Origin: Cetorhinus maximus
Taxonomy: Eukaryota
Direction of reading: 5' to 3'
Assembly: GCF_964194155.1 (NCBI RefSeq)
Contig: NC_135899.1
Span: 3,224,001-3,288,000 of the forward strand
DNA length: 64,000 nt
Shown here: piece after piece, positions 2,153 through 51,540 of the stretch
Numbering within the stretch: the stretch's first letter is position 1
How the letters are laid out: every line of letters begins with the position of its first letter
Notes under the pieces: generated by a model
Seen by the model: only the letters and a program-made list of their open reading frames with translations
Database searches by the model: none
What the model was told of the DNA's origin: nothing
Position numbers and translations under genes: made by a program

Positions 2153-3248
2153 CTGCATTCAGATATAAAGCATCACTCTCGTTAAGTCAATCAATCACTG
2201 AGATCCAACGTTGACAGATGAATCACTTGCATAGAATTTACAGAACAGATCAGACCTTTCGGCCCATCGATTCACACTCCACACGAGTCTCCTTCCACCC
2301 TATCCATCTCACCCCATCAGCATATTCTCTACCCTTTTCTCCCTCGTGTGAGTATCTAGCTTCCTCTTAAATGCATCTGTGCTACTGGCTTCAAGCACTC
2401 CATTTAAAACAAGTTCCACATTCTCACCATTTTCTGGGTAAAGGAGTTTTTCCTGAATTCCTTACTGGATTTATTCGTGATAGGGTTTAAAATACGCAGC
2501 AGCTTAAAATGGCTTGGACATAATTCACTCATATGCAAGCTTGGAGTAGCAAGACCCTGGCCCATGACTGAAATTCTCCGCACAGCCCATTCTCAACCTC
2601 AGTCGGGATGGTGTGGCACATTTGGGGATGGAAGGGGAAGGTCAGTTCTAATGTCCCATCTCTTTACTGGCAGTTACAGCAGTTCTGCAAGCAGATTACT
2701 CATGTTGCATTCATGAACCATGATTCAAGTTAGCTAAGAAACCTCCTCTCCCTCCCTCTGTGGAGGGGCAGGAGGGCACCGAGGTTATTTTAGTTTCTGC
2801 CTTGCTCCTGTTTTCAATGTCGCAATGCTTCTTTTCTGCCCTGCAGTGAAAAAAAAATCAGCTGATGTCAGTTTAGTGAGCGTTGGATCCCACTGATCAG
2901 TACTCGTGGTGGTGGTGGTTGGTGCAAGGGAGGTGGTGGGGGGTGCTGTGGGAGGAAGGAGGGCCTGGCCTGAGTTTAGATTATCTGTTCCTCATCCCTA
3001 CTCTCGACTGACACTCAATTTTGCACGCCGAGTTTACTGGACAACAATCAGGACCAGGAATCCAGGCCAACTTGCCACCTCTCAAACTTCAGAAAGTTTG
3101 TTGGGCTCAATCTAAACTGGAGCAACAAAGTCAGCTCAAAGGATCAAACCAGGGACCTCTGGACCTCATTCCATAGAGTGCCCATTCAGCGAAGCACTGG
3201 GTGCTTTGTAAAGCCCCCAGTGGTAATAAGAACCCTTAATAAACTCAC

Positions 3249-3892
3249 CATCATCAATGTCTGTGTCACTGTTCATCTCCAGAAGCTCCGTCTCATTAAC
3301 GTTGCCTGCTGTCTCTCTGGTTTCTCCTTCCAATGCTGCATTGCTGTCTGCGCCATCATCAGCTTTACTGCTTTCTTCCTCCTTGCCTGGACGGATTAAG
3401 CTCCTGGCGCGAGCCTCGGTGTCAGCCTCTTGGACATCAGCACCTTTGGCGAGACCAGAATCCGTTTCGGTGCACACTGTGAGACCGCCGCTATTTAACC
3501 CCGAGTCTTGCTCCTCCAGCTCCACTTCACTGTCACTGTCCCGACTGAAATGGGGCAGGAGGTCAGCAGCAGCAGGTGGTGGGACACCAGGCTCCTGGGA
3601 GGAGATCCTTCCTGGGTCACAGTCGAGTGCCTCCCCTGGACTGACTGTTTCTTTAGCGGTGTTTGAATGGTTGGCGGTTGCGCCACCAGTCGCCAGCAGC
3701 GAGTTACAACCTTGATGCTCTTCAGCAGCTCCTGTTTCGGAATTCACACAGTTGTCATCGACTGGGCGCTTGGGATTGAGTTCTGCCCATTTTTCACCAG
3801 GCTGCTGATCTTCTTCCAAGTCAGTGTCACTGTCATTATGCAGCTGCACCGATTGAGCATTGGAACGAGATGTTTCATCCCCTTCATCATCA
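3249..3892 (-). CDS. MDC1: MDC1 coding exon 4, acidic SDT region
   Basis: tcttctag acceptor, G|GTGAG donor, 644 nt open frame; contains DSDTDLEE, SDSEVELEE and NSDTDIDD (CK2/NBS1-type SDTD motifs). Confidence 0.88.
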
Positions 3893-4374
3893 CTAGAAGA
3901 AGGAAGTTGTTAGAAAATGTTTCCAACCACCCTAGATTATGGAATCTTACAGCACAGAACGCCATTCAGCCCATCCTGCCCATGCCAGCTCTTTGAAAGA
4001 GTATGTAATTAATTGCACACTCCTCCTCATCTTTCCCCACATCCTGCCACCTTTTTCCTCTTTCAAGTCGATATCTAATCCCCACATGAAAGTGAGACTT
4101 GAATCTTCTTCCACCACCCTTTCAGGCAATTTACATAAAAAAATTCTCATCTCCCCTTTTGGTTCTTGTGCCAATTACCTTAGATCTCTGTCCTCTGGAT
4201 ACTGACCCACCTGCCACTGGGAAAAGTTTCTCATTATTTGCTTTATCAAATTTTAAACACTGCTATTAAATAGCCACTTAACTTCCTCTGCTCTAAGGAG
4301 AAGAAATAGTTTGTCCAGTCTCTCCACAAAACTAAAGTCCTCATCGCTAGTACCAGTCTAGCAAATCCCCCCAT

Positions 4375-4830
4375 ATGAACATACGAATTAGGGGCAGGAG
4401 TAGGCACTCGGCCCCTCAAGCCTGCTCCGCCATTCAGTAAGGTCATGGCTGATCTGCTTGTAACTCCAACTCCGCATTCCTGCCTACCCCTGATAACCTT
4501 TAACCCCCCACCCCTTGTCAATCAAGACTCTATCTAGCTCTGCCTTAAAAATATTCAGACTGTGCTTCCACTGCCTTTTGAGGAAGAGAGTTCCAAAGAC
4601 TCACGGCCCTCTGGGAGGAAACATTTTTCCTCATCTCTGTCTTAAATGTGCGAACCCTTATTTCTAAACAATGACCCCTAGTTCTAGATTCTCCCACAAA
4701 AGGAAACATCCTCTCCGCATCCACCCTGTCAGGACCCCTCAGGATCATAAAGGTTTCAATCAAGTCGCCTCTTACCCATCTAAACTCCAGTGGATACAAG
4801 CCTATCCTGTCCAACCTTTCCTCATGAGAA
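4375..4830 (-). mobile_element. CR1-type LINE 3' fragment
   Basis: Translation LGLYPLEFRWVRGDLIETF...RTRGH...WNSLP is the typical CR1 ORF2 C-terminus, followed by the CR1 tail. Confidence 0.85.
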
Positions 4831-6740
4831 AACCGGCCAGTAACTTCTTCAAGGCCTTGTCATTCCCCCCCACTGAAATATGGCATCCAGGATTGATTAC
4901 AATTCTACAACTGAGGTTTAAACAGTGTTTTGTAAAAGATTAGCATAACCGATGGCGGAGCAAATTCACACATCCACCATCCACATTTTAGGGCCCAAGT
5001 CGCAGACACAAACTCAACTCAGTTCCTTCTCAATGCAACCCCAGCCTGCTCACCTGCTGCCGCTAACGGCAAGATTCCTGGTTGCTGCATACTGTGGGTC
5101 GGATGGGCATTCCCGCTCACCATGCTCAGTAGCTGCAATCACCTCAGGTCGCAGCAGGAGTGGCTTTTGAGTGGATTGAAAGGGAGGAAGCAGCCAAAGG
5201 GCAGTTCTTTAGAAGGGAACATGAGAGAAGCTGAGAGCTTGTGCCCAGGGGTGGGAAGTAACAGTCCAGTTAGACTGTCAAAAATCCCAATGCTGCTTCA
5301 GTACCATTTCATTAAGATTTAAAATCCACCAATTGTGAAGTATCAATGTGTTACAAGTAACCAGAATATGCCAGTTCGCTGCTTTACAAATGTAACAACA
5401 TATGAGTTTTCCCCCTTCAGGTTTTTCATATACTTATGGACTCTGATGTAGCCTCCCACTGCCCTGTAATATTCCATTTCAACAAAACTGTAGTATTCCA
5501 GTAATGCAGTTGGGAACCATACTGTATCGTACCTGTCACAATATAGTGGATCTGTTGTAACCATTACTCCTGGACAGCAGTGTCATTTCTGCCACTTTAG
5601 CAGTGCCATGGCCAGTTACAGTACAAAAATAATCAACTTAATGTGACACTATTTAAAAATCACACACTTAATCCAAACATTGCAAACAGACTATGGTTAC
5701 AATAGCATTCAGGAAATGTCTAGTGTTTACTCCCATGATTAAGAGTCTTGAAACACACTTCAGCTCAAAGTTACTCAGCTTGAACCAGGGTGTAGAAATA
5801 ATTACACGGAATTATGTAACATTTACTGCACAAAATCAGGCCATTCAGTCCAACAGGTCTGTGCTAGTGTTTATGCCAGCGGGATGTTTGGGGAGGCAGT
5901 GGTATAGTGGTAATGACTCTGGACTAGTGATCCAGAGGCCCAGGATAATACTCTGTGGATGCAGGTTCAAATCTCACCATGACAGCTGGATTCAAATTCA
6001 ATGAATAGAATCTGGTGACCATGAAACTATCATCGATCGTTGGAAAAAAAACCCTTCTGGTTCACCAATGTCCTTTAGGGAAGGAAATCAGCTGTCCTTA
6101 CCTGGTCTGGCCTACATGTGACTCCAGACCCACAGCAATGTGGTTGACTCTTAACTGCCTTCTGAAATGGCCTAGCAAGCCACTCAGTTTAAGCGCAATT
6201 AGGGATGGGCAACAAATGCTGGCCTTGGCCTTGCCATGGATGAAGAAAGAGAAAGAAATTGCCCCACACTAGCTTCATCACACTCTACTTACTTCACCTC
6301 ACCCCATTAACATATCTTTTTATACCTCTCTCCTGTCTTTCAAGTGGATGCGAGAGATGCCAAGGCACTGTTCAAAGAACAGGTGAGTTCTCCAAGTGGC
6401 CTGGTCAATATTTATTCCTTAACCAATATAGTATTACTAAAAAAAAATCTGATCACTTATCCCACCACTGTTTGTGGGAACTTGCTGTGCATAAACTGGC
6501 TGCTGAGTTTCCTACATTACAACAGTGACAACACTTCAAAAAGTACTTCATTGGCTGTAAAGCACTTTGAGACAACCTGGCATCATGAAGGACGCTACAT
6601 AAATACAGGCTGCCCCTTTCTTTATTTATTAAGTTTCCAATTAAATGCCCCTACAACTCCTCTTTCCAATCCAAACCCCATTCCCACACAAAACAACCAC
6701 AGAATGTTATATATCCGTCCTGGACATTGAGGAATCTTAC

Positions 6741-6819
6741 CTTTCGGGGACAACATGAGCTGAGGGAGTTTGGCGTATCGAAGCGTTCAGGTGTCGGCCG
6801 TGTCGGGAAACAAAGGGTC
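6741..6819 (-). CDS. MDC1: MDC1 coding exon 3 (GPFVSRHGRHLNASIRQTPSAHVVPES)
   Basis: ttgtatttccag acceptor and AG|GTAAG donor; 79 nt bridges phase 1 to phase 2; joins the next exon to give VVPESDDE, like human IVPESDEE. Confidence 0.82.
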
Positions 6820-8399
6820 CTGGAAATACAAAATGGAAGGCAACTGCTCATGACCACGTTTCAGCCATCTCATCATAAATGTCCAAGGGCTGAAGATTTA
6901 CTGTGCTCAGGGCATAACAAAACTAAGCAGGTGATCTCTATATTTACTTTTATGGTGGTGCTCAAGAAACAGGAAACCAAGTTCCTTTCGGTGCCTGCCA
7001 AGAAAGAAAAGCAAGTGTATCGCTGTAGCAATGAGAGGAATGGCCAGAAAATTTGTTTTCAAGTCATGTTGAACGAGGGGTAAATATTAACCAGGAGAGG
7101 GGAGAACTCCTCTGCTCATCTTTGAAAACACAGTGGCGGTGCGATCTCTTACGTCCACCCAGGGTGACAGAGGCAGCCTCTGTTTAGGGTCTGAAATGAC
7201 GGCACCTCCGACAGGTGGTGTAGCTCTCCCTCAGGACTGCACTGGGAGCGTAAGCCTGCACTTTGTACTCAAGACTCTGGAGTGAGACTTTGCCCCACCA
7301 CCTTTCTGACTCAGAGGCGAGAGAGTGCCACCCACTGGGTCACTCCTGACAAAAACATTGTGATCTGCAGTGCTCAGACATGCATCATCTGTAAGCCCAC
7401 CAATAGGTAGTGCTGAGAGGCTGAGTAAATTGGCCTACACTCTCTGGAGTTTAGAAGAATGAGAGGTGATCTCAAGATGAGCATAGAAGGTTCAGAAGGT
7501 ATTTGACAGGGTCAGTACTGAGAAGCTGTTTCCACTGGCTGGAGAGTCTAAAATTGGGGTCACTGTCTCAGAATAAGAGTTGCTCATTTAGGACTAAGAT
7601 GAGGAGAAATTTCTTCCCTCAGATGGTTGAGAGTCTTTGGAATACTCTACCCCAGAGCGTGCCTAAGATCATAAAAATAAATAGGAGCAGGAATAGGTAA
7701 TTCGGTCCATCGAGCCTGCTCCATCATTCAATAAGATCAGGGCTGCTCTGATTATGTCCTTAACTCCACTTTCTTGCCTGTCCACCATAACCCTTGACTC
7801 CCTTATCAATCAATCAAAAATCTGTTTAACTCAGCTTTGAATTTTGGATGCTCCATTAATGAGTACATTCAAGGTTGGGATAGACAGATTCTTGGTCCCT
7901 CAGGGAATCAAGAAACATTGGGGTAAGGTGGGAGAGCAGAAGATCAGCCAAGTTCACACCGATTGGGGGGACAGACTCGATGGGCCGTATGGTCAACTCC
8001 TTCTCCTATTTCTTATATTCTTATTTTGTTGCAGCCGACTCTTAACCGGCCAAGCAAGTCAATCAGTTCAAGGGCAATTAGGGATGGGCAACAAATGTTG
8101 CCTTTGCCAGCGACGCCCACGTCCCATGAAAAAACAGGGAACAAAAACGTTAGGAGCTGGGGAGTTCTTTCTGGTGTCCTGAGCCAACAGTTATCTCTCA
8201 ACAAACATCACTAAAAAAAAAAACTTTATCCAGTCACATCTCAGTTGCTATGTACCAAATTAGCTGTCATCTGTACTACATTATAGCAGCAGCTACACTT
8301 CACTGTTGACTGTAAAGTGCTTTGGGACATCCTGAGGTGGTGAAAGGCACTATATAAATGCAAATTTTCCTTTCTTATTATGAGAAAGGCAAAAGATAT

Positions 8400-9701
8400 T
8401 GTTATGGACCCCAGAAGAAGAAAAATTTACCTTTAAAAATGGAATTCAGGCCTCAGAGACTGGGAACTACAAGTCCCAGCAGGCCTCAGCAGCCTCTGCG
8501 CAGGCACCACCCCTGGAAAAAACGCAAACGTGCAGATGGTTCCTTTTTGCAATCTTCGGCCGGAGAACGGGCACAATGCGCAGTTGGGGCACCTTCTTGT
8601 CTTCAGGTCACAAACCAACCCTGCACACGTTTGTTTTTGCTTTTGTTAGATTTAAAGGGAGCCCTGCGCCTGCACAGAAGGGCAAAAGTGAACCCCAAAA
8701 GTGAAACAGCGCAAAAAGGGAGTCAGATGACTCAGAAGAAAAATGCCATTACACAGAGAGGCACAGGAGAAGCTGGACACGAGAGTGGGAGCTGCAGAGA
8801 GCAGATTTCTCAGAAGAAAAGCGGAAAGTCCCAGAAACTAGGGAGAGAGAGAGAGACAGAAGGAAGTCCCAGGGAGACAGCAAAGTCAAAGGAAAAGAAC
8901 AGGAATCTGAAGTGGTCCTGTTCAGTGGAATTGAAAGTAAGAAGCAGAGGAAAAGGCTCCGAATTAAAGAGAGAACGCTGCAGGGAGCAAAGTGTGCTTG
9001 CGAGAAGCCAGAGGATTTGAGGAGACAGCCAAAGGTCGGTGGCTCCTTACTACGTGAGGCAGTGGTGTTCTGTTGGCATGGCTGCATATCTGAGAGAGAG
9101 TGCATGGAAGGTGAAGCTTGAATGCACATGGTGATCCAGGGGAGAGGAACATCGGAAGGAGAGATCAAAACTCTGGAGGTGGACCCTTGTGGAAGGCATC
9201 CGAGAGAGGGTGTCGTTTGGGAGAAAATTCCAAAGTGAGTTCTTTGAGAGTGGAGATTGGAAACTTCTGTGTGAAAGATGGAGTTCAGTGAGACCAGTTG
9301 GCTCATAGTGCAACAAGCGTCTGGGGGGAGTTGATCAGAGACCCTTTGCATGTTTGGGGTGGCGTTTCTCACTTGGTTTCAGAGTATGGTGTGCTGACCA
9401 CAGGTTTATATGAACTGTGCGCTTACTGTGAATATTAGAATAAGATAACTTTTATAACTTGTGTTATCCTTACGAATCTGTGTATATCTGTAAAGGTGTA
9501 GTTGTGGGTGAAGGAGCATCGTAATATAGTTAATCTTTTCTTGTTTAATAACTGTTTTATTCTTTTGTTAAAAGTTCGTCAGCTGATTCCTGTAGCCACC
9601 CGCCACGTTTCTGAACAAAAAGTAAAAGTTAGGGTCTATCAAGCCGGGTTCCACCCTGGGATCTGACTTGTCCAGCAGTAACATCAGCTGAGATCATAAC
9701 A
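8400..9701. mobile_element. Solo LTR, Gypsy-like, in an MDC1 intron
   Basis: Ends TGTTATG...CATAACA (7-bp inverted termini) flanked by a 4-bp target-site duplication ATAT (8396-8399 and 9702-9705); no internal coding region. Confidence 0.8.
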
Positions 9702-10214
9702 ATATGTTGCCTCAACATCGTCAGGAGATGCAATAAAAATAAAGGTGACATCAAATAAGAGGAAAAGTGGTTATTAAAAAAATCTATTATATTTAAAGAG
9801 TGAGAAGAGAATGCAGGAAACTTAAATAGATTGCCATCTCAGGGGGAGATGGTGGCAATGTGGTAATGTCACTGGACTAGTAATTCAGAGTCCCAAGTTC
9901 AAATCCCATCATGGCAACTCATTTAATTAATTATTCAATTAATAAATCTGGAATTGGGGGCTAGTCTCAGTAATGGTGGCCATGAAACTATAATCGATTG
10001 TTGTAAAAACCCACCTGGTTCACTAATGCCCTTTAGGGAAGGAAATCTGCCATCCTTACCCAGTCTGGCCTACATGTGACTCTAGACCCACAGCAATGTG
10101 GCTGACACTTAACTGCCCTCAGTTCAAGGGCAATTAGGGATGGGCAACAAATGCTGACTTTGCCAGCAGCTCCCACATCTCATGAAAGCATAAAGGAAAT
10201 AAAAGTCTGCCTAC

Positions 10215-10745
10215 CAGTGCCCTTCCATGGTGTGTCGTCATCCTCAGACTCTTTCACGTAGGTGTCAGACTGAAAGGGCATCGACGATTTGGTTTGGTAC
10301 GGTTGGGTGGGCGACAGCACAAGCGAATCCTCCGGCGATTCCAAATCGCCACTGGTTGCCTTGGAGATTAGATCTTCACTGGCGACACCGCCACTGTCCG
10401 GCCGCTCACCCCCCGTGCCCAGCCTTGACTGGGGAAACATGGACTCTGAGCCAGTTTCTGAACCAGAGTCATCGTCTTTGGCTGGCGCTGGTGGCAGCAG
10501 TCTATACTGGCAGGCGACATCTGCGAAAATAAAGAGGTCGCCGTCGTTGATGGCGTATCGGACATTGGGCTTGAGGATGGTGTTCTTCCGCCGGGTCTTG
10601 TTCAGGCTGTTGCAGTCATGGATCAGGTGGGAATCCCCCTCGATTTCAATCACCGCATGCTTCTTGGACACAGACTGCACCGGAATGTGAATGTGGCAAC
10701 TCTCGTGTCTGCCGATGACATTTTCACCTGTGTACACCAAAAAAC
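10215..10745 (-). CDS. MDC1: MDC1 coding exon 2, FHA domain
   Basis: ttgcag|G acceptor, G|GTAGG donor, 531 nt, phase 1-1; translation GENVIGRHESC...SVSKKHAVIEI...DCNSLNKT...FADVACQY carries the FHA GR, SxxH and N motifs as in MDC1. Confidence 0.93.
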
Positions 10746-10929
10746 CTGCAATAGCAAAGGAAACAAATGAAACAGTGATTTTTTTTTTAAAAAATTGGGA
10801 ATCCACATACACGCTTAAGCGCCCTCCCTGATTCACTATTATTTCTCTACCCTGGACACACTGGGGTATGGTTCCACAAGCCACAGCAGCCCTCCAGTTA
10901 CTCACCCACCCAGTCAATCCTTGTACATG

Positions 10930-19816: not shown

Positions 19817-22737
19817 GTGACCAAACTGTGTATACATGAGAGCAGAGTTATAGAATATCCATGAATCCTTGTTACAAATTCAAATACTAGCGCTAAAAAA
19901 AAATCCCAGTTCAACAAAAACACAAGTACCATTCAAGCCATGAACCAGATGTTTATCAAGTGTTTGTGGGTTTTTTTTCTGCTTTTACATAAAGAAAATA
20001 TGGAACTTTTGCCATTTCATACATATAATCTTTGATATTTATCTGCATTTTTTCTCCCCATGTCAGCCACTTGGCCCAGAAATAAAGGCCTTATTCTCTG
20101 AGCCAGAGACTTGGTTCCACCAGCTGTGTGGAGTTATTGCAACAATGATGGGAGTGCTACAACTGGTCACAGTGCCCCTAGGAAGGAAAAATAAATTTAA
20201 ACCAACCAATGGCCAACATACAGCAGCCCATTGCCCCCTGAAAACAGGCTTGATTAGAAGCCGCACGAGGGCAGGTTAGGGCTCGCTGTGATGCCCACAG
20301 TCAGATAGCCTGTCTGCAGTGATAAAAGCATACACATGAATAACATCCACTCATGAAAGTTGGCCTGGAGATTCAGTACATACTCTAGCACTCTGTGTTA
20401 GTATTGCATCAGTGCGTGCTAACTCAACGTGTTTTGATATGCAGAAACAAGCAGCTTTTTTTTTTTGATTTTTGCTTGTTATATGCAGAAGCACTCCAAA
20501 AATAAAACAATGCGTTATTGATAAACATACCAACCAATGTGGTACAGGTCAGAAAAGGCCCAGACAGTGACTGCTTACACATGCTCATGTAGTCGAGCCC
20601 AGCAAAGACCTGCAGTGGAGTTGCCACATCGCCTGTAGCTGAGGTGGTGGTTGGGGTGGGGAGAAGAGGGGGAGTGGTTTCACACTCCTAATTGCTTTCC
20701 ATCAATAGCTGTGAGCAGGCGAATGCATGGGGGTGTTGGAAAACTCTTACCATCAAGCTGTGATACCCCTTCATGGTCATATAGCTCACTGACCTTCCAG
20801 TCCTGACTGACGCACGAACAATAGACAAGTTGAGAATGAGCAGTCGCCTTTTATTTAAACAAAACCAGTTCAGTTGCTTTAGGACTAATATATAAACTGG
20901 GTGGGATAAAGTTGTAGGCCATAAGCCGGCAATGAAATAGTTCTACTAGAGTTCAAATCTTTTTAAAAATGGTGTACGTTATTTCTTCCATTAACTTTTG
21001 ATAAATCATAAATGGAAAATCTTCCTCGCATATCTACGAGTAAATTATAGAGTGAAAGGGGGACCTCCACCCCATTGAAGAGTTTGGCAGCACATGGTGC
21101 AAATGCACAAGATGAAAGCAAAATACTGTGGGCTGTAATACAATGACATTATAATTTGGCACCTTTTTATATTTAAGTCCTCCTTTTTCTGCACAAGCCT
21201 AATTGAAAATGTTTTGTTGCAACAGATATAGTGGACACAAGACCTTATCAAAGGGGGAGGCATGTGAAAGGAAATAAAAAGGGGCCTGTGACCATTTTCA
21301 AAGCTACGTTAGAACTCGGGTTTGCAAACTGGGATTTTTTTTTTAAAAAAGAGGTCCCCAAAGGAAAATTAGGTGATGCGTAAGAAAATGCGTTTACCTA
21401 ATATGGTCATGTTTTTTTTCCCCTGTATTTGCTGAATTACTAGCCAAGCTGTTTCTGTATATGCTAATCTGCCACAGCAGCACTGATTTCCTTGCCACAG
21501 TTAACACTGTCTTTTGGAAGTCTGGGTGGGGTAGGGGACCCCCGAGAATGCAAATGATATTTCCAACGAGCTGTTGGAACAGAAAGTTTTAAAACTACTG
21601 CTGATCTGATACTATTGTCCTTTCAATGCACCATGAAAGAATCCTTAAAAGGGCATTGTCATCAGGTGGAGAGAATACAAAATCTTCTTTAAATTTGACA
21701 ATGAAAAGAGTTTTGAAATAACGCGCAAACCAGTCAGTTTGGGCTTTTGAAATTGGACGCAATGGCATATACGAAGAAATCTTCCAATCAAAAATCTGAA
21801 AATGCAACACAAACAAAATCTCGCACTTGGTCCAGAACTGGCCAAACGCCATTTAAACTGAAGTCATTTTTCTTTATTTTATTGGGGCAAAAAAAAAAAT
21901 CTCAGTTCTCCAAGAGACAACAGCTTAACATGTTACATGGACCAAAGGTTGCAGCTCGAACCCCTCGGTCTCTGACCTGAGTAGAAGCATCGGGCTAAAA
22001 TCAGCCTAAGCACCAGAGCTGGGGAGGGAGTAAATGAAGCCAGGATCCTCGTTCCCGATTGCCAGTGTCAGAAAACTCACAAGGAAAAGAATGGGGCTTG
22101 GCTGTGATCACTGGTGCCCTCAAATACATTTACCATCTGGACTCACACAAGTGCTACTTGACTGAGGATGGAAGGGTGGGGAATGTTGTTACAGAAACAA
22201 GGATTACAGATTTGTAGAGACTGCTCCACACTGATTTCGGGTAAAATAAGAAAGATGTCGTTAGACTAGTCAAAAGACATCCTCCTCGATGATTCCCTGT
22301 TGAATGTTTCCCTAATTCCAACCTAATATTTGAAATAGTGAGGCTCCCACACTTGGAGCAAAGCCTTACAAAAAAACAAAAATAAATCACCCTTTATACA
22401 TTCCCCCTAACATGGAACTCTGCACCGTTTCCAGTCTCTAGCCTCGGGTAAATTTACGCTGTCACCTCACTGAACGAGTTGCTGTATATTTCTCCATTGC
22501 CAGACAACAGCACCCCTAAAAAATACATGCAAGTTAGTGGCTGCTGGCCAAATCTCTGCATTCGAGCAAACTGTGTGGTCAATGGGTTAATTCTTCAGGT
22601 GGGCCCCTTCAAAAGCGAGATTCAATTGTACCTTTTCCATTCATCTGACAGCTTTCTTGGCCAGTATACAGCCCTTCCCACTTTCTTTCCTGAATCTTAG
22701 CTTCGTCTCCCTGATCTGTTCTCTGGCCGTGTACGTT

Positions 22738-24564
22738 TCACTTCAAAGAGTTTTGTAGCGCGACGATGATTTGCTTTGTCTTTTCCGTCGTGGTACCGTC
22801 GTTCTTGCTAATTATATCGTGGAGAATAAGCAGAATGGGTCTTCCAAGTTCAATGTAAAACTTTTCCGGGTCTTTATTTTTCTTGTATGTCTCACCGCCA
22901 CAGTGCAACGCAACTAGGGATCCCTCAGAGTTAAATATCGGCGATCCAGCAGCACCGTAGTGGAATTCTGTTTTGTATGTGATTACATTGGAGTATTTGA
23001 GTCTATTGAAAGCTTGACTCGCAATCAAGACCGTATCATGCGTATAATCTTCAGTATCTTCTCTGGTGATCTCAGATCTTAAGATTTCCACAGGCTGCGG
23101 TGCATAGCCAGCTGCCCTCTGATCACAGGTCACGACCGAGCAAGGGCAGATTTTCTTCTTGTCTCCTTCGGGGTGGCCGGTGATGTAGAGGATGCCGGTT
23201 TTCGGGGGGGTGGCATAGCACTCCATCAGCCCCGGGGCTCCTGGGGAGCTCTCCAGCTCCAGGACAGCATAGTCGAGCATTTGGTCGTAAATCTCCAGCC
23301 AGGCCACCAGCTTCAACGGCTCGCCTCTCTGGCCCTCCTGCTCGTAGCCAAAGAAGACCTCTGCGCAGTCGCGGATTAGAGTGGGCCAGCCGCCGAACCC
23401 GACGGCATTCTCCGTCATCATCTCCACCACGTGGTAGCAGGTGACCACGTACCTGTCCTTCAGGACGAAGCAGGTGCCGCTGCCCTGTGTGGTGGAAGAT
23501 TTCCAGGCGATGCAGCCCACGCTGGAGAGGTGGTCAGAGATGCAGCGGAAAGCCCTGGCCGGCACGGACGACAGGGCCTCTTGGTGGAGCCGGTTCAGGT
23601 ACTGCCTTTCTGACACTTTAGCCAGGTCGGCGTTCCTGGAAACTGACTGCTTGAATTTCAACAGGGAGGCACGGCGGCTCTCCAGGTGCCACTTTGGAAG
23701 CAGATTGCGGCCAGCCTCATACAACTTCCCGTCCAGCTCCTTCTTGGTCATCTGCGCTGCTGACTCCGCAGATTTACTTGCTCTCGGCTTTGGGCTCCTG
23801 CCGTCGTCAATGGCCTTCTTCCTGGGGCCAGTCATCTCGATTTGAAAGCTGCGGTCGTGCAGCGTGTCCACTGTGTTGTTGAACTGGATCTTCCGCGGTG
23901 GGTCCACCTTCTCCAGCAGTTTGTGGGTGTCGTCCTCGATCTTGGAGTCGAAGCGGCCATCGTTGACCAATGTTTCCCGAATGGTCTCGCCCTCGAAGCC
24001 CAGGATGCACAGCTTGGTCTGCCCCTGGGCTATCCGGTCCGCCAGGACGATCCTCTGGGTGGTGTTGCCTGCCATCCTGCCGCTTGGCTCAACGTAGAAG
24101 AGAACGTGGCTCTTGTTACGTGGGTACTCCGGAGGGTGTGGCCGCTCGCCACCGTCGCGATTCTGGCTCCGCAGGAACAGCAGCCGAAAGTGGGAGTGCT
24201 GGGGTAAGTAGCAGCAGAGGATATCGAGGTTCACTAATCCTTTCAGCGGGCCCTCTCCATAGGCAAGGATTGTGTTGTCACTTTTCACCTTCTCTTCAAA
24301 GTCACAGGACGTATTCAACGCGAAGAGCAAGGTGTCACTCGGATCTGCAGCAAACGCATACTGGATATTATCTGGGTCCCCACACACACTGAAAGTGAAC
24401 TCTTTTCTCTGGAAGTTTTGTATCCCACACTTCTTGTTTGCATATTTGTTCCTGAGAATTTTCCCATTCTTCGGACTAAACTCGTTGCTATAGCTGCCCG
24501 GTTGCAGTTTGCTTTCTCCCCATGGGTTACAGTCACCCATCTTCTTGCTTCGAGTGTTCATCAT
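22738..24564 (-). CDS. FAM111A: FAM111-family (FAM111A-like) protein, large terminal coding exon: two ubiquitin-like domains plus trypsin-like domain with catalytic Ser replaced by Ala
   Basis: 608-codon open frame starting right after a ctgcag acceptor; KLCILGFEGETIRETLVNDGRF, GTCF, TCYHVV (His), LDYAVLEL (Asp), ITGHPEGDKK, GAAGSPIFNSEGSLVALH all align by eye with FAM111A/B motifs. FAM111A versus FAM111B orthology is unresolved. Confidence 0.9.
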   Translation of the reverse strand: MMNTRSKKMGDCNPWGESKLQPGSYSNEFSPKNGKILRNKYANKKCGIQNFQRKEFTFSVCGDPDNIQYAFAADPSDTLLFALNTSCDFEEKVKSDNTILAYGEGPLKGLVNLDILCCYLPQHSHFRLLFLRSQNRDGGERPHPPEYPRNKSHVLFYVEPSGRMAGNTTQRIVLADRIAQGQTKLCILGFEGETIRETLVNDGRFDSKIEDDTHKLLEKVDPPRKIQFNNTVDTLHDRSFQIEMTGPRKKAIDDGRSPKPRASKSAESAAQMTKKELDGKLYEAGRNLLPKWHLESRRASLLKFKQSVSRNADLAKVSERQYLNRLHQEALSSVPARAFRCISDHLSSVGCIAWKSSTTQGSGTCFVLKDRYVVTCYHVVEMMTENAVGFGGWPTLIRDCAEVFFGYEQEGQRGEPLKLVAWLEIYDQMLDYAVLELESSPGAPGLMECYATPPKTGILYITGHPEGDKKKICPCSVVTCDQRAAGYAPQPVEILRSEITREDTEDYTHDTVLIASQAFNRLKYSNVITYKTEFHYGAAGSPIFNSEGSLVALHCGGETYKKNKDPEKFYIELGRPILLILHDIISKNDGTTTEKTKQIIVALQNSLK

Positions 24565-26890: not shown

Positions 26891-26952
26891 CTGACACTCC
26901 TGGTAATGATTCTCAGCACCTGACACCGCAAATCGAACTAGGCAGTCAGATT
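26891..26952 (-). CDS. Probable small upstream exon of the FAM111-like gene (ESDCLVRFAVSGAENHYQECQ)
   Basis: Strong acceptor ctttctttcag and donor CAG|GTAGA; 62 nt, open in the phase 1 to 0 frame needed to join the large exon. Confidence 0.55.
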
Positions 26953-29354: not shown

Positions 29355-29436
29355 CTTGCTTTATGTTCCTTTGTAGAGGGTTGCCATCCTTCCTGGGGCC
29401 ACTTGCATCTTGTGGCTGTGTAAGACAAGGATTCAT
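29355..29436 (-). CDS. Candidate first coding exon of the FAM111-like gene (MNPCLTQPQDASGPRKDGNPLQRNIKQ)
   Basis: acaATG with A at -3; donor AAG|GTATGA; 82 nt ends in phase 1, matching the 62-nt exon; the three exons would give 656 aa. Confidence 0.45.
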
Positions 29437-32400: not shown

Positions 32401-33880
32401 CTGGGCTGGTTCTGCAGCCCTCCGATGTTCATGACTCACAACCGCCATGGTTACAATATCTCCAGTGCCCCCACTGAGTGAGGTTGACAGCTTTGCGGCC
32501 AAGTTGCCTGATCTAGCGCAGGATTCAACTCAAGGGTTGGCAACCTGATTTTGGTGGGGGGTGGTGGTGAGAAGAGATCAGGGTGAGTGACCTGCAAGAG
32601 GTACAAAGCTGCCACAAAGGAGTCAGCAGGAAGGTGAAGTCCAGCGGAGGGCCACTCAATGAAGCCAGGGACCGCAGTGGGATGTGTGTTTCTGGAGCTG
32701 GCCCGGGAAGGGCCAGAAAGCGCATTGATAAAGAGAACGAGAGAAGTACCGTAGGTGTCCGGCTGCCTTCATCACTCGAGGAACTCATCCTGTGGTTTTA
32801 TCACGCAGCACTGAAATAAAAACAGAAAAGTTTATGAGAGAGTATATCAACTGGGCCTTTTCAGAGAGGCAGGATCGCCATTAGGGCCCCTCGACGCCTC
32901 CCAACAGAAATATGGGATTCTGTCCCACAAAACCATCTGGAAACGGGGCAAGTGGGGCCACTTTGAAAGAACACATCACCATGGGCACTGCTTTTCAAGA
33001 AGGTTCCAGTGTATGGTGTGAAGCATAGACTGCATGACTAAGATCAGCAAACAAGATGAAGCTGGATTGAAGTGGCGATCTGTGCAGAGTTCCACCACTG
33101 CAACCACTGCAACATTCGCTCCCAGCACTAATGGATGAGCAAGTGCAAAAAGAGTCCCCACACCAGATCACTGCCCAATGGTCACCGTAGCAGAAAAGGC
33201 ACTGGGCAAGGACAAGGTGATGCTTTTCAGTGGTGCCCTCCATGATCGAATAGACTGTTGATGTTCACTGTCTCAGATCACATGTGAAGTATGACACCAT
33301 TGGAGGGAGGCTAACATACTGTAGTGCTGTCTACATCCGAATAATCCTGTACCCAGATGATTTGAGCCTTTAACAACAGTTCCCTTAGCATAATAAAACA
33401 TCCCGAGGAGCTTCACAATATCATTATCAAACAAAATATGACACTGAGCCACATCAGGAGATATTAGGTAGCTTCGTTGAACAAGTGGGTTTTAAGGGAG
33501 GTAGAGAGGACTGGCAGGGAATTCCAGAGCTTGGGATTCCAGGCAACTGATGGCACAGCTACCAATGGTGTCACAATTATTACTGGGGATGGCCAAGAGG
33601 CCAGAGGTTAGATGCCAGAATTAGGAACTGAAGTCGGCCATTCGACCCCAAGAGCCTGTTCCAATATTCATTGCATCACGGCTGATCTGAACATAGCCCC
33701 AACTTCACATTCCTCCTACCCACAATAACCGCTAATATGAACATGAATGAGCGCAGCAGATATCCCGGGGGAGATTGGCTTACGGAATCTGGTGTGGGGT
33801 GGGGGGAGCCTGTTTAATGGAGTAGAAAAGGAGGAAATAGAAGTGGGCGACAGAAGATAGGGAAGGGTGGACGGCGGACG

Positions 33881-35275
33881 TGGAGGGGGGGAGAGAGGGC
33901 GAGAGCGGAGGGGGGGAGAGAGGGCGAGAGCGGAGGGGGGGAGAGAGGGCGAGAGCGGAGGGGGGGAGAGAGGGCGAGAGCGGAGGGGGGGAGAGAGGGC
34001 GAGAGCGGAGGGGGGGAAAGAGGGCGAGAGCGGAGGGGGGGAGAGAGGGCGAGAGCGGAGGGGGGGAAAGAGGGCGAGAGCGGAGGGGGGGAAAGAGGGC
34101 GAGAGCGGAGGGGGGGAAAGAGGGCGAGAGCGGAGGGGGGGAAAGAGGGCGAGAGCGGAGGGGGGGAAAGAGGGCGAGAGCGGAGGGGGGGAAAGAGGGC
34201 GAGAGCGGAGGGGGGGAAAGAGGGCGAGAGCGGAGGGGGGGAAAGAGGGCGAGAGCGGAGGGGGGGAAAGAGGGCGAGAGCGGAGGGGGGGAAAGAGGGC
34301 GAGAGCGGAGGGGGGGAAAGAGGGCGAGAGCGGAGGGGGGGAAAGAGGGCGAGAGCGGAGGGGGGGAAAGAGGGCGAGAGCGGAGGGGGGGAAAGAGGGC
34401 GAGAGCGGAGGGGGGGAAAGAGGGCGAGAGCGGAGGGGGGGAAAGAGGGCGAGAGCGGAGGGGGGGAAAGAGGGCGAGAGCGGAGGGGGGGAAAGAGGGC
34501 GAGAGCGGAGGGGGGGAAAGAGGGCGAGAGCGGAGGGGGGGAAAGAGGGCGAGAGCGGAGGGGGGGAAAGAGGGCGAGAGCGGAGGGGGGGAAGAGGGCG
34601 AGAGCGGAGGGGGGGAAAGAGGGCGAGAGCGGAGGGGGGGAAAGAGGGCGAGAGCGGAGGGGGGGAAAGAGGGCGAGAGCGGAGGGGGGGAAAGAGGGCG
34701 AGAGCGGAGGGGGGGAAAGAGGGCGAGAGCGGAGGGGGGGAAAGAGGACGAGAGCGGAGGGGGGGGAAAGAGGGCGAGAGCGGAGGGGGGGAACGAGGGC
34801 GAGAGCGGAGGGGGGGAACGAGGGCGAGAGCGGAGGGGGGGAACGAGGGCGAGAGCGGAGGGGGGGAACGAGGGCGAGAGCGGAGGGGGGGAACGAGGGC
34901 GAGAGCGGAGGGGGGGAACGAGGGCGAGAGCGGAGGGGGGGAACGAGGGCGAGAGCGGAGGGGGGGAAAGAGGGCGAGAGCGGAGGGGGGGAAAGAGGGC
35001 GAGAGCGGAGGGGGGGAACGAGGGCGAGAGCGGAGGGGGGGATCGAGGGCGAGAGCGGAGGGGGGGAACGAGGGCGAGAGCGGAGGGGGGGAACGAGGGC
35101 GAGAGCGGAGGGGGGGAAAGAGGGCGAGAGCGGAGGGGGGGAAAGAGGGCGAGAGCGGAGGGGGGGAAAGAGGGCGAGAGCGGAGGGGGGGAAGTGGGCG
35201 AGAGCGGAGGGGGGGGGAAAAGAGGGCGAGAGCGGAGGGGGGGAAAGAGGGCGAGAGCGGAGGGGGGAAAGAGGC
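33881..35275. repeat. G-rich 25-bp minisatellite, about 55 copies
   Basis: Unit CGGAGGGGGGGAAAGAGGGCGAGAG with clustered variants GAGA, GAAA, GAAC. Confidence 0.97.
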
Positions 35276-35469
35276 CGAGGGAGGTGGGTATGCAAGGCGA
35301 GGGAGGAGGGTGTCCGTAGGGGTGGGGGGCACGTTCTGGGGCCACGAGGCGAGGGCGTATCCTGGGGGGGCAGGGCGAGGTGGGTAACCTGGGGGTAATA
35401 GCCGGGGGGGTATGGGTCCGGGCAGGGACAGGGGGTATACGGGGGGGGGTATGCGGGGGGGCGGGGGGG

Positions 35470-35800
35470 CCTCCTGGGCGAAGGGGCCGGGGGGGCCTCC
35501 TGGGCGAAGGGGATGGGGGGCATCCTGGGCGAAGGGGATGGGGGGCATCCTGGGCGAAGGGGGGCATCCTGGGCGAAGGGGATGGGGGGCATCCTGGGCG
35601 AAGGGGATGGGGGGCATCCTGGGCGAAGGGGATGGGGGGCATCCTGGGCGAAGGGGATGGGGGGCATCCTGGGCGAAGGGGATGGGGGGCATCCTGGGCG
35701 AAGGGGATGGGGGGCATCCTGGGCGAAGGGGATGGGGGGCATCCTGGGCGAAGGGGATGGGGGGCATCCTGGGCGAAGGGGATGGGAGCATCCTGGGGGG
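35470..35800. repeat. Second G-rich 25-bp minisatellite
   Basis: Unit ATCCTGGGCGAAGGGGATGGGGGGC, about 13 copies. Confidence 0.93.
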
Positions 35801-36390
35801 CATCTTGGGGGAAAGGGGCAGGGGGCATCCTGGGGGGCAGGGGGTATCCTGGAGGGGGCATCCTGGAGGGGGCTGGGGGCGGGGATATCCTTGGGGGGGG
35901 GGGGGGGGGGGGGCTGGGGGGGGGTACCCTGGGGGTGGGGGTATCCTGGGAGGGGCTGTGGGTGGGGATATCCCGGGGAGGCGGCGCGGGAGTTTCCTGG
36001 GAGGGCGGGGTGTGGGTGTATCCTGGGTGGGCAGGGGAATCCTGGGGGCGGGGGGGTATCCTTGGGGGGTGGGGGTATCCTGGGGTGGCGGGGGTATCCT
36101 GGGGGGGGCGGTGCAGAGGGGCGGGGGTATCCTGGGGGGGCGGTGCGGGGTCTGGGGGTATCCTGGGGGGACGATGCGGGAGGCGGGGGTATCCTGGGGG
36201 GGCGGGGGTATCCTGTGGGGGGGGCGGTGCGGGGTTATCCTGGGGGGGCGGGGTTATCCTGGGGGGGGGGGGGGGCGGTGCGGGGGGCGGGGGTATCCTG
36301 GGGGGCGGGGTTATCCTGGGGGGGGGGCGGTGAGGAGGTATGGGGGGGGGGGCGGGGCGTGGGGTATTTGCGGGAGGGAGGGTATCAGGG
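35800..36390. repeat. Degenerate GGGGTATCCTGGGGGG repeat
   Basis: Recurrent TATCCT cores separated by G-runs. Confidence 0.8.
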
Positions 36391-36399
36391 ACGCGGTGT

Positions 36400-36870
36400 G
36401 AGAGAGCGACCGCTCCGGGCCGGTGTCTAATCCCCATCAATAACACGGACCCGTGAACGAGGCCTCAACGCCGCCCATTCCCCGTCCGGCCGGAGCAGCT
36501 GCAATCCTCGGGCGCCCCCCCGCCCCATCCCCTCTCTCGCAGGCTCGGGGAGCCCCGAAATCACCCCCGCTTCTCTCTCCCCCCCCCCCCAGCCCGGGCC
36601 CGCCAGAGTCTCAGCATCTGCCGGGGAGAAGGTGAGAGGAGCGGTTCAGAGAGGCTCCATCCTCCCTCCCTCCATTTCTCACCGATCCAACGGACGGCCG
36701 GCCCCCCCCTCACTGTGTCCGGAAAGTGGGTGAAGCCTGAAGCAGCAGGCCCGGGTTGGGTAACGTCAGCGTCGGCCGTCCCCGCTCCTCATTGGCTGCC
36801 GCGGTCATGTGACCGTGCAGCGGGAGGGGGCGGGGCATGTTCAGTTCCTGACGTCACAACGGGGCCGGGG
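36400..36870 (-). promoter_or_regulatory. CpG-island promoter and probable non-coding exon 1 of the FAM111-like gene
   Basis: Dense CpG; ATTGG at 36791, GC box GGGGCGGGG near 36827, full CRE TGACGTCA at 36849-36856, ETS-like CCGGAA near 36719; minus-strand donor CG|GTGAGA at 36683/36682. Confidence 0.65.

Positions 36871-50451: not shown

Positions 50452-51540
<1,089 letters not shown>

Follow-up and report, generated by a model that had tools for sequence, protein, structure and literature searches.

We here describe an intact paralogue of FAM111, a protease of DNA replication and antiviral defence, encoded in a 64,000-nucleotide stretch of the Cetorhinus maximus genome (contig NC_135899.1, positions 3,224,001 to 3,288,000; the window), in which alanine takes the place of the catalytic serine. 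Judged from its sequence, the protein very probably is a pseudoprotease, and the reading towards which we lean is that of a predicted non-cutting homodimer whose substrate cleft, being retained, would hold a conserved protein of the host. Dimerisation through helix alpha1 would order the S1 pocket, as in human FAM111A, and the pocket, together with a basic hairpin specific to this paralogue group, would then take up a substrate-like stretch of a nuclear partner that itself evolves slowly. In conjunction, the ubiquitin-like (UBL) domains, perhaps through weak binding of single-stranded DNA (ssDNA), would position the complex on chromatin, a site of action that is plausible for the shark protein. 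In such a mechanism the protein would serve as an adaptor or protector, not as an enzyme. The residues and domains concerned, numbered within the 608-residue frame of the last exon, are the following.

23431..23433, minus strand: His378 (human His385), codon CAC, in TCYHVV; invariant.
23272..23274, minus strand: Asp431 (human Asp439), codon GAC, in LDYAVLEL; invariant.
22948..22950, minus strand: Ala539 (593 in the full protein), codon GCT, at the nucleophile position (human Ser541), motif HYGAAGSP.
22944..22942, minus strand: Ser541, codon TCG, downstream of Ala539 in the same motif HYGAAGSP.
24172..24402, minus strand: UBL1, residues 55-131, from alignment to mammalian FAM111A; model pLDDT about 76-92, with bounds set by us.
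23833..24114, minus strand: UBL2, residues 151-244, from alignment and model; Phe205 corresponds to human Phe231.
23515..23574, minus strand: helix alpha1 region, residues 331-350, predicted homodimer interface with Phe339 and Arg340, from complex prediction.
22849..22899, minus strand: basic hairpin, residues 556-572, beside the S1 pocket; near-invariant and specific to this paralogue group.

The nucleophile motif GAAGSP aligns gap-free to human FAM111A and is letter for letter that of the S541A construct 8S9K, the motif in 8S9L being GASGSP. A preliminary description of this DNA had reported an intact His in TCYHVV, an intact Asp in LDYAVLEL, an Ala at the nucleophile position (GCT, 22950-22948) and a likeness to S541A, all of which are borne out. 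The triad hence reads His-Asp-Ala, and not the His-Asp-Ser by which an active FAM111 protease is recognised. Trypsin_2 (PF13365, residues 363-553, E 8e-16) is the sole Pfam domain detected, and the only sequence matches in the PDB are human FAM111A protease-domain entries (2 of 2; best E 3e-42). Two UBL domains are present N-terminally, as indicated by the mammalian alignment and by confident strand-helix domains in the model. The equivalent of Phe231, which is reported to have a role in ssDNA binding by human FAM111A (PMC7067828), is Phe205 in UBL2; the residue was mapped via mammalian proteins of like numbering and is invariant in 113 of 113 rows.

The consequences of this substitution have been described for human S541A. 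In the reported experiments, the variant, which keeps the downstream Ser, folds and dimerises with no detectable peptidase signal on Suc-AAPF-AMC (PMC10920703), is still found at forks with no autocleavage observed (PMC7067828), and is still bound by SV40 LT-C, an active-site ligand (PMC13640560); in the assays published on the poxvirus serpin SPI-1 it forms no covalent complex (PMC11847056). As the human variant binds and dimerises without activity, the shark protein should likewise bind without cutting. The same data bear on a very slow hydrolase, in which a His-Asp-activated water or substrate assistance would let the intact pocket sustain a selected, low level of specific cleavage. All 21 Ala sequences indeed keep His378 and Asp431, galeomorphs without exception keep the oxyanion Gly537, and S195A variants of KLK4 and KLK7 are reported to keep about 1% activity, which depends on Asp102 and is gone in S195A/D102N (PMC5533777). 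However, human S541A is silent in the peptidase and autocleavage experiments just cited, and the residues flanking the His are equally invariant, so that fold constraint may suffice; we regard residual hydrolysis of this kind as unlikely. It is very improbable that Ser541 or Cys555, both invariant in the group, substitutes as nucleophile to yield a normal active protease. The downstream Ser, which the preliminary description had named as a possible nucleophile, is the same as that of human S541A, inactive in the published assays (PMC10920703), and the register is gap-free, while Cys555 also occurs in Ser-bearing relatives and hence does not compensate for the loss.

The alanine is shared and old. 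A first search of 7136 candidates yielded 24 proteins, of which 12 are chondrichthyan orthologues with 58-97% identity, and cluster look-ups added further species; the Cetorhinus sequence P0026, with zero branch length to the window protein, was counted once and excluded from rate tests. Each of the 11 named galeomorph species (Carcharodon, Cetorhinus, Heterodontus, Mustelus, two Scyliorhinus, two Chiloscyllium, Hemiscyllium, Rhincodon and Stegostoma) carries Ala at the nucleophile position, while both squalomorphs (Heptranchias and Pristiophorus), all eight named rays and skates, and 8 additional Logan rows carry Ser. Since the gene tree unites the galeomorphs in one clade (support 99; 96/86 in a tree of 33 rows), a single change on the galeomorph stem suffices. 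This implies that Ser was replaced once, at least about 180 million years (Myr) ago, taking bullhead shark fossils, which are reported as Toarcian, 180 Ma (PMC7614348), as a minimum age. At only six positions (113, 247, 300, 331, 341 and 539) do galeomorphs have a fixed residue that none of the other sequences has.

Across the wider family the substitution is confined to this group. Among 158 FAM111-like sequences longer than 300 residues, a count from which shorter sequences and the 46-residue P0028 were excluded, 137 read His-Asp-Ser and 21 His-Asp-Ala, and all 21 are the orthologues described here. The best 150 of 431 cluster representatives gave Ser in 147, Ala in one (from this group) and no reading in two; His was replaced in three others and Asp in two. 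No shorter relative was found among 1242 candidates, and in a profile search of 50% representatives no close relative appeared outside the group, the best other sequence scoring 313 bits against 1280. The protein searches brought up no chimaera or sawfish orthologue, which is not proof of absence. The alignment of orthologues that the preliminary description had proposed thus separates galeomorphs from squalomorphs, rays and skates, and its view that this is not an ordinary pseudogene agrees with the presence of Ala in 11 of 11 galeomorph species under constraint that is not relaxed. To a sequencing error or a decaying pseudogene, which the single base between GCT and TCT might suggest, we give practically no weight: the same Ala recurs in 11 species, splice sites are intact and constraint is strong.

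Departures from the canonical motif are seen in sister lineages too. In skates (P0011, P0049 and P0050) the oxyanion-hole Gly, two residues before the Ser, is replaced by Ala, and in myliobatiform rays (P0012 and P0046-P0048) the Pro after the nucleophile motif has become Ala, which on the aligned sequences are independent departures within one orthologue group. The canonical motif is kept among Ser-bearing orthologues only in Heptranchias, Pristiophorus and Narcine. In addition, an autocleavage site of the Phe334-Gly335 type is missing in 20 of 20 group members shown and present in 10 of 10 rows of the triad-intact shark paralogue (group 2, see below). Because the autocleavage site is missing group-wide, the hairpin is the group's own and the skate and myliobatiform motifs changed separately, the whole paralogue group probably moved towards binding before the Ser was lost.

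Protein-level tests indicate that the gene is under purifying selection. The rates for the protease domain and the UBL domains are 0.885 and 0.422 in galeomorphs, 0.179 and 0.087 in squalomorphs, and 0.917 and 0.483 in batoids; the protease domain thus evolves at about twice the UBL rate in all three groups alike, from which it follows that loss of the Ser brought no relaxation. In the protease domain, amino-acid replacements are more conservative than neutrality would give (0 of 100 simulations in every one of five galeomorph comparisons). With S1-pocket and oxyanion-loop residues defined from the human structure paper (PMC10920703), 4 changes were counted in these residues against 13.3 expected for sites drawn at random from the domain (P=0.010), 7 against 18.8 in the predicted dimer interface (P=0.006) and 4 against 13.2 in the basic hairpin 556-572 (P=0.009), all three P values being generous.

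Comparison to group 2 in the same species sharpens this picture. Divergence is 0.445 here versus 1.373 in group 2 for the UBL domains, 0.704 versus 1.348 for the protease domain and 0.197 versus 1.086 for the cleft, where the ratio of p-distances between the two groups is 0.33 (bootstrap confidence interval 0.16-0.54). On these alignments the Ala-bearing cleft is 3-5 times better conserved than that of the triad-intact paralogue. Evolution this slow, with conservation centred on the cleft, is more readily explained by a conserved host partner than by viral antagonists. It also bears on a protease domain that would merely be a dimerisation scaffold for two UBL domains, its cleft being empty. 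The UBL domains are the slowest parts of the protein and the dimer interface is conserved, as such a scaffold would have it; yet the cleft half diverges less than the N-terminal barrel here (0.077 versus 0.218), unlike in the triad-intact paralogue (0.230 versus 0.298), and the basic hairpin is nearly invariant in spite of being loop-like and modelled with lower confidence. An empty cleft therefore appears improbable to us.

A viral decoy, soaking up viral inhibitors of FAM111 and thereby shielding an active paralogue, is in our estimation rather improbable. SV40 LT-C binds S541A (PMC13640560), the S1 pocket is kept, and the gene lies on a contig bearing the major histocompatibility complex (MHC). 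A decoy should, however, track its fast-evolving target and the viruses, whereas the window protein is only about 26-27% identical to the group 2 paralogue and has the slowly evolving cleft described above. In addition, S541A is reported to form no covalent complex with SPI-1 (PMC11847056), the interferon-type element GAAANNGAAA, searched as one simple pattern, is absent near the putative promoter and occurs twice elsewhere in the window against 4.4 expected, and about 23 Mb separate the gene from class I. MHC linkage as a sign of an immune role was for its part set aside, as the neighbours are framework genes and class I is that distant. Among the roles put forward in the preliminary description, that of a trap or binder hence fits best, while that of a viral decoy is weakened by the slow evolution of the cleft.

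In both AlphaFold2 models (mean pLDDT 68.3 and 72.2), a pair of small N-terminal domains is followed by a disordered linker and then by the protease domain. By fold, the protein matches 8S9K best (Z 24.6, root-mean-square deviation 3.6, 227 residues), and 8S9K and 8S9L are the top matches in Foldseek and VIA. For residues 318-608 a homodimer was predicted with a score of 0.52, versus 0.13 for the best control, with contacts agreeing to at least 66% and a partner pLDDT of at least 68; for comparison, 21 of 30 solved pairs (7 of 16 in animals) and 0 of 23 single chains attain the mark set for a homodimer. The predicted interface comprises residues 330-346, 408-409 and 469-475, i.e. helix alpha1, Glu408 and strand 469-475, and corresponds to the alpha1/Glu415/beta7 interface described for human FAM111A (PMC10920703). 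The human dimer sensor Lys348-Glu415 is Arg340-Glu408 here, invariant in galeomorphs. In group 2 (P0065, P0066, P0073, P0128 and P0165) the pair is Glu-Lys, a reciprocal charge swap, which suggests a salt bridge at this position and paralogue-specific dimerisation.

The interface allows the shark protein to be considered as a heterodimer regulator as well, which would either order the oxyanion hole of a triad-intact FAM111 or poison its dimer. Activity of human FAM111A is reported to need dimerisation (PMC10920703) and FAM111B to be its top interactor (PMC10551639); 9 of the 11 named galeomorph species yielded a triad-intact paralogue of full length, and two of the six galeomorph-fixed changes (331 and 341) fall in the dimer segment. 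Nevertheless, group 2 shares just 4-6 of 24 interface residues with the window's group (7-9 of 24 in group 3), and the swap of Arg340/Glu408 to Glu/Lys would face like charges in a cross-pair. Moreover, the paralogue evolves faster while the interface of the window's group stays still, and searches of the window's own genome, of limited sensitivity and hence not establishing absence, gave no triad-intact paralogue of full length. A dimer partner of active FAM111 proteases, as envisaged in the preliminary description, is thus weakened by the divergent, charge-swapped interface and is a quite unlikely role in our view.

Sharks have at least three full-length FAM111 groups. In a tree of 33 selected rows with midpoint root and no teleosts, group 2 (about 608 residues, triad intact) joins tetrapod FAM111A/B with support 100/98, whereas the window's group lies outside group 2 and the tetrapods on a long stem, nearer to group 3 and coelacanth proteins. 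By this phylogeny the window gene is an elasmobranch FAM111 paralogue and not the orthologue of human FAM111A, which another shark gene is. The link to replication forks drawn in the preliminary description from FAM111A does not transfer directly, since the orthologue of FAM111A/B is that other gene and a PIP box is lacking: none of the 10 group members scanned has a PIP-like pattern, the PIP box being reported as limited to mammals (PMC9798293). The family review reports an intact triad in all species analysed (PMC9798293), which is explained by its shark sequence, A0A401QCT3 of S. torazame, falling in group 2. In databases, the orthologues of the window protein carry the label 'serine protease FAM111A-like', with several isoforms annotated.

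Stricter first searches of the window's own genome with P0014 and P0073 gave no close copy. The genome does contain two protease-domain frames with an intact triad and one with all three residues gone. The latter, a 330-residue frame (L010:1432-2424, minus strand; G000:C16, near 90.31 Mb) with a FAM111-like protease domain whose triad is lost throughout as read by eye, is a candidate second, more eroded pseudoprotease. The intact-triad frames are a 906-residue one (L007:6001-8721, plus strand; G000:C1526), whose FAM111-like protease domain is interrupted, in frame, by an 11-residue basic, Tyr-rich repeat in a long array, and a 300-residue one (L002:1318-2220, plus strand; G000:C888) with a FAM111-like domain and no UBL match.

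Several observations weigh against a dimeric binder on chromatin. The invariant His and Asp would also fit residual catalysis. The location on chromatin is made uncertain by the missing PIP box and by a weaker basic UBL2 loop, a loop described for FAM111A (PMC10551639), which has 4 Lys/Arg here versus 5-9 in the group 2 paralogue and 6-9 in mammals. In the models, the loop before the oxyanion hole (residues 521-535, or 520-537 in the other model) has pLDDT below 50, so that pocket geometry is not given by the model and the triad was judged from the alignment, and the homodimer score may reflect memory of 8S9K. No nonsense change is observed on the galeomorph tree against 23-29 expected if neutral, a test biased by protein databases holding only intact frames. 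The conservativeness test that is clear for the protease domain is weak for the UBL domains (59, 39, 10, 4 and 1 of 100 simulations), the permutation nulls behind the P values above include variable loops, and conservation of the cleft may in part be structural. Finally, a 75-kb interval without annotated gene is reported between tubb4b and mdc1 in sawfish (supplement of PMC10751288), due to which the gene group may be dispensable in some lineages.

We further consider, as a possible if doubtful extension of the non-cutting binder, that an old non-catalytic task of FAM111, gripping a conserved nuclear partner via the dimer-ordered cleft, was split onto a dedicated shark gene, whereupon galeomorphs dropped catalysis fully, while skates and stingrays did so in part, each by steps of their own. 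If true, the partner would reveal the physiological ligand class of FAM111 proteases, and dominant Kenny-Caffey syndrome arising from the inactive human alleles S541Y and S541P could be explained; that inactivating Ser541 alleles cause dominant disease is described in the family review as unexplained (PMC9798293).

The open frame at 24564-22738 on the minus strand comprises 608 codons and a stop. The preliminary description had taken it for an intact gene, and it is indeed open with GT-AG sites present; the frame is, however, only the last of four coding exons, which with GT-AG sites throughout encode a protein of 662 residues, 644 of them identical to the white shark record P0002. The parts of the gene are as follows.

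36683..36860, minus strand: putative promoter and non-coding first exon, a by-eye reading of a GC-rich stretch near 36860-36680.
36856-36849, 36795-36791 and 36682, minus strand: CRE-like TGACGTCA, CCAAT and candidate GT donor, respectively, by eye.
32750..32788, minus strand: coding exon 1, ATG at 32788; 13 of 13 residues match P0002; GT donor.
29355..29415, minus strand: coding exon 2; 20 of 20 residues match P0002; AG/GT sites.
26891..26952, minus strand: coding exon 3, corresponding to P0002 residues 34-54; AG/GT sites.
22738..24564, minus strand: coding exon 4, 608 codons and stop; UBL1, UBL2, linker and trypsin-like domain.
20850..21883, minus strand: candidate poly(A) signals AATAAA at 21883 and 20855, by sequence motif.

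Within exon 4, GC content at third codon positions is 0.72-0.93 over codons 121-480 (one block 0.68) and drops to 0.40-0.56 over codons 481-608 (window 22738-23124), coinciding with the most conserved part of the protein. The presumed first intron holds G-rich tandem arrays at 33882-36357, among them a 25-bp unit in 56 copies with 98% match, which account for long low-complexity open reading frames. On the MHC-bearing contig the FAM111 gene sits between two neighbours of the same strand, a beta-tubulin gene (TUBB, 50452-51540) and a gene with an FHA domain, taken to be MDC1 (3166-10929); CCHCR1 is located about 80 kb from it and the MHC class I genes about 23 Mb off. These flanking genes resemble the MHC framework genes of white shark chromosome 19 (PMC10751288), where, according to the supplement of that study, two unnamed same-strand genes precede mdc1 at similar spacing. 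The 16.8-kb unnamed white shark gene near mdc1 would presumably be the orthologue of the window gene.

In conclusion, a natural equivalent of S541A has persisted for at least about 180 Myr, more tightly constrained than a triad-intact copy, which represents evolutionary evidence for a selected, nucleophile-free function, and the window protein would constitute a stable natural substrate trap. No report of a serine-less FAM111 was found in the full-text literature, subscription papers lying outside its coverage. With about 80% identity, the sawshark and sevengill orthologues offer a ready Ser/Ala comparison of the step from enzyme to pseudoenzyme. The Ser-bearing orthologues of squalomorphs, rays and skates form one orthologue group with the window protein (58-82% identical); they share its hairpin, resemble it in the interface and differ in keeping the Ser. 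Shark group 2 has the same domain layout in overlapping species, but keeps the Ser and an F/Y-G-K autocleavage-like site, evolves faster and has the charge-swapped dimer sensor.

Human FAM111A and FAM111B share the UBL-UBL-trypsin_2 layout and FAM111A gives the best match in sequence and fold. Kept from human FAM111A are the His, the Asp, the oxyanion Gly, the S1 His and Glu, and the equivalents of Lys348-Glu415, Tyr414 and Phe231. The shark protein is unlike it in its natural Ala, its group-specific basic hairpin, the weaker basic UBL2 loop, the lack of a PIP box and of a Phe334-Gly335 site, and in being a deep paralogue at a different locus. For human S541A, the published experiments describe failure to rescue fork protection (PMC7067828) and SV40 restriction (PMC13640560).

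Among chymotrypsin-fold pseudoproteases, HGF, haptoglobin, azurocidin, protein Z and bacterial MamO have kept the fold for binding after catalysis was lost; they are secreted or periplasmic and usually lack two triad residues. In contrast, the shark protein has no evident signal peptide and is presumably nuclear; the nucleophile is the one triad residue it has lost, and orthologues that bear the Ser persist in its sister lineages.

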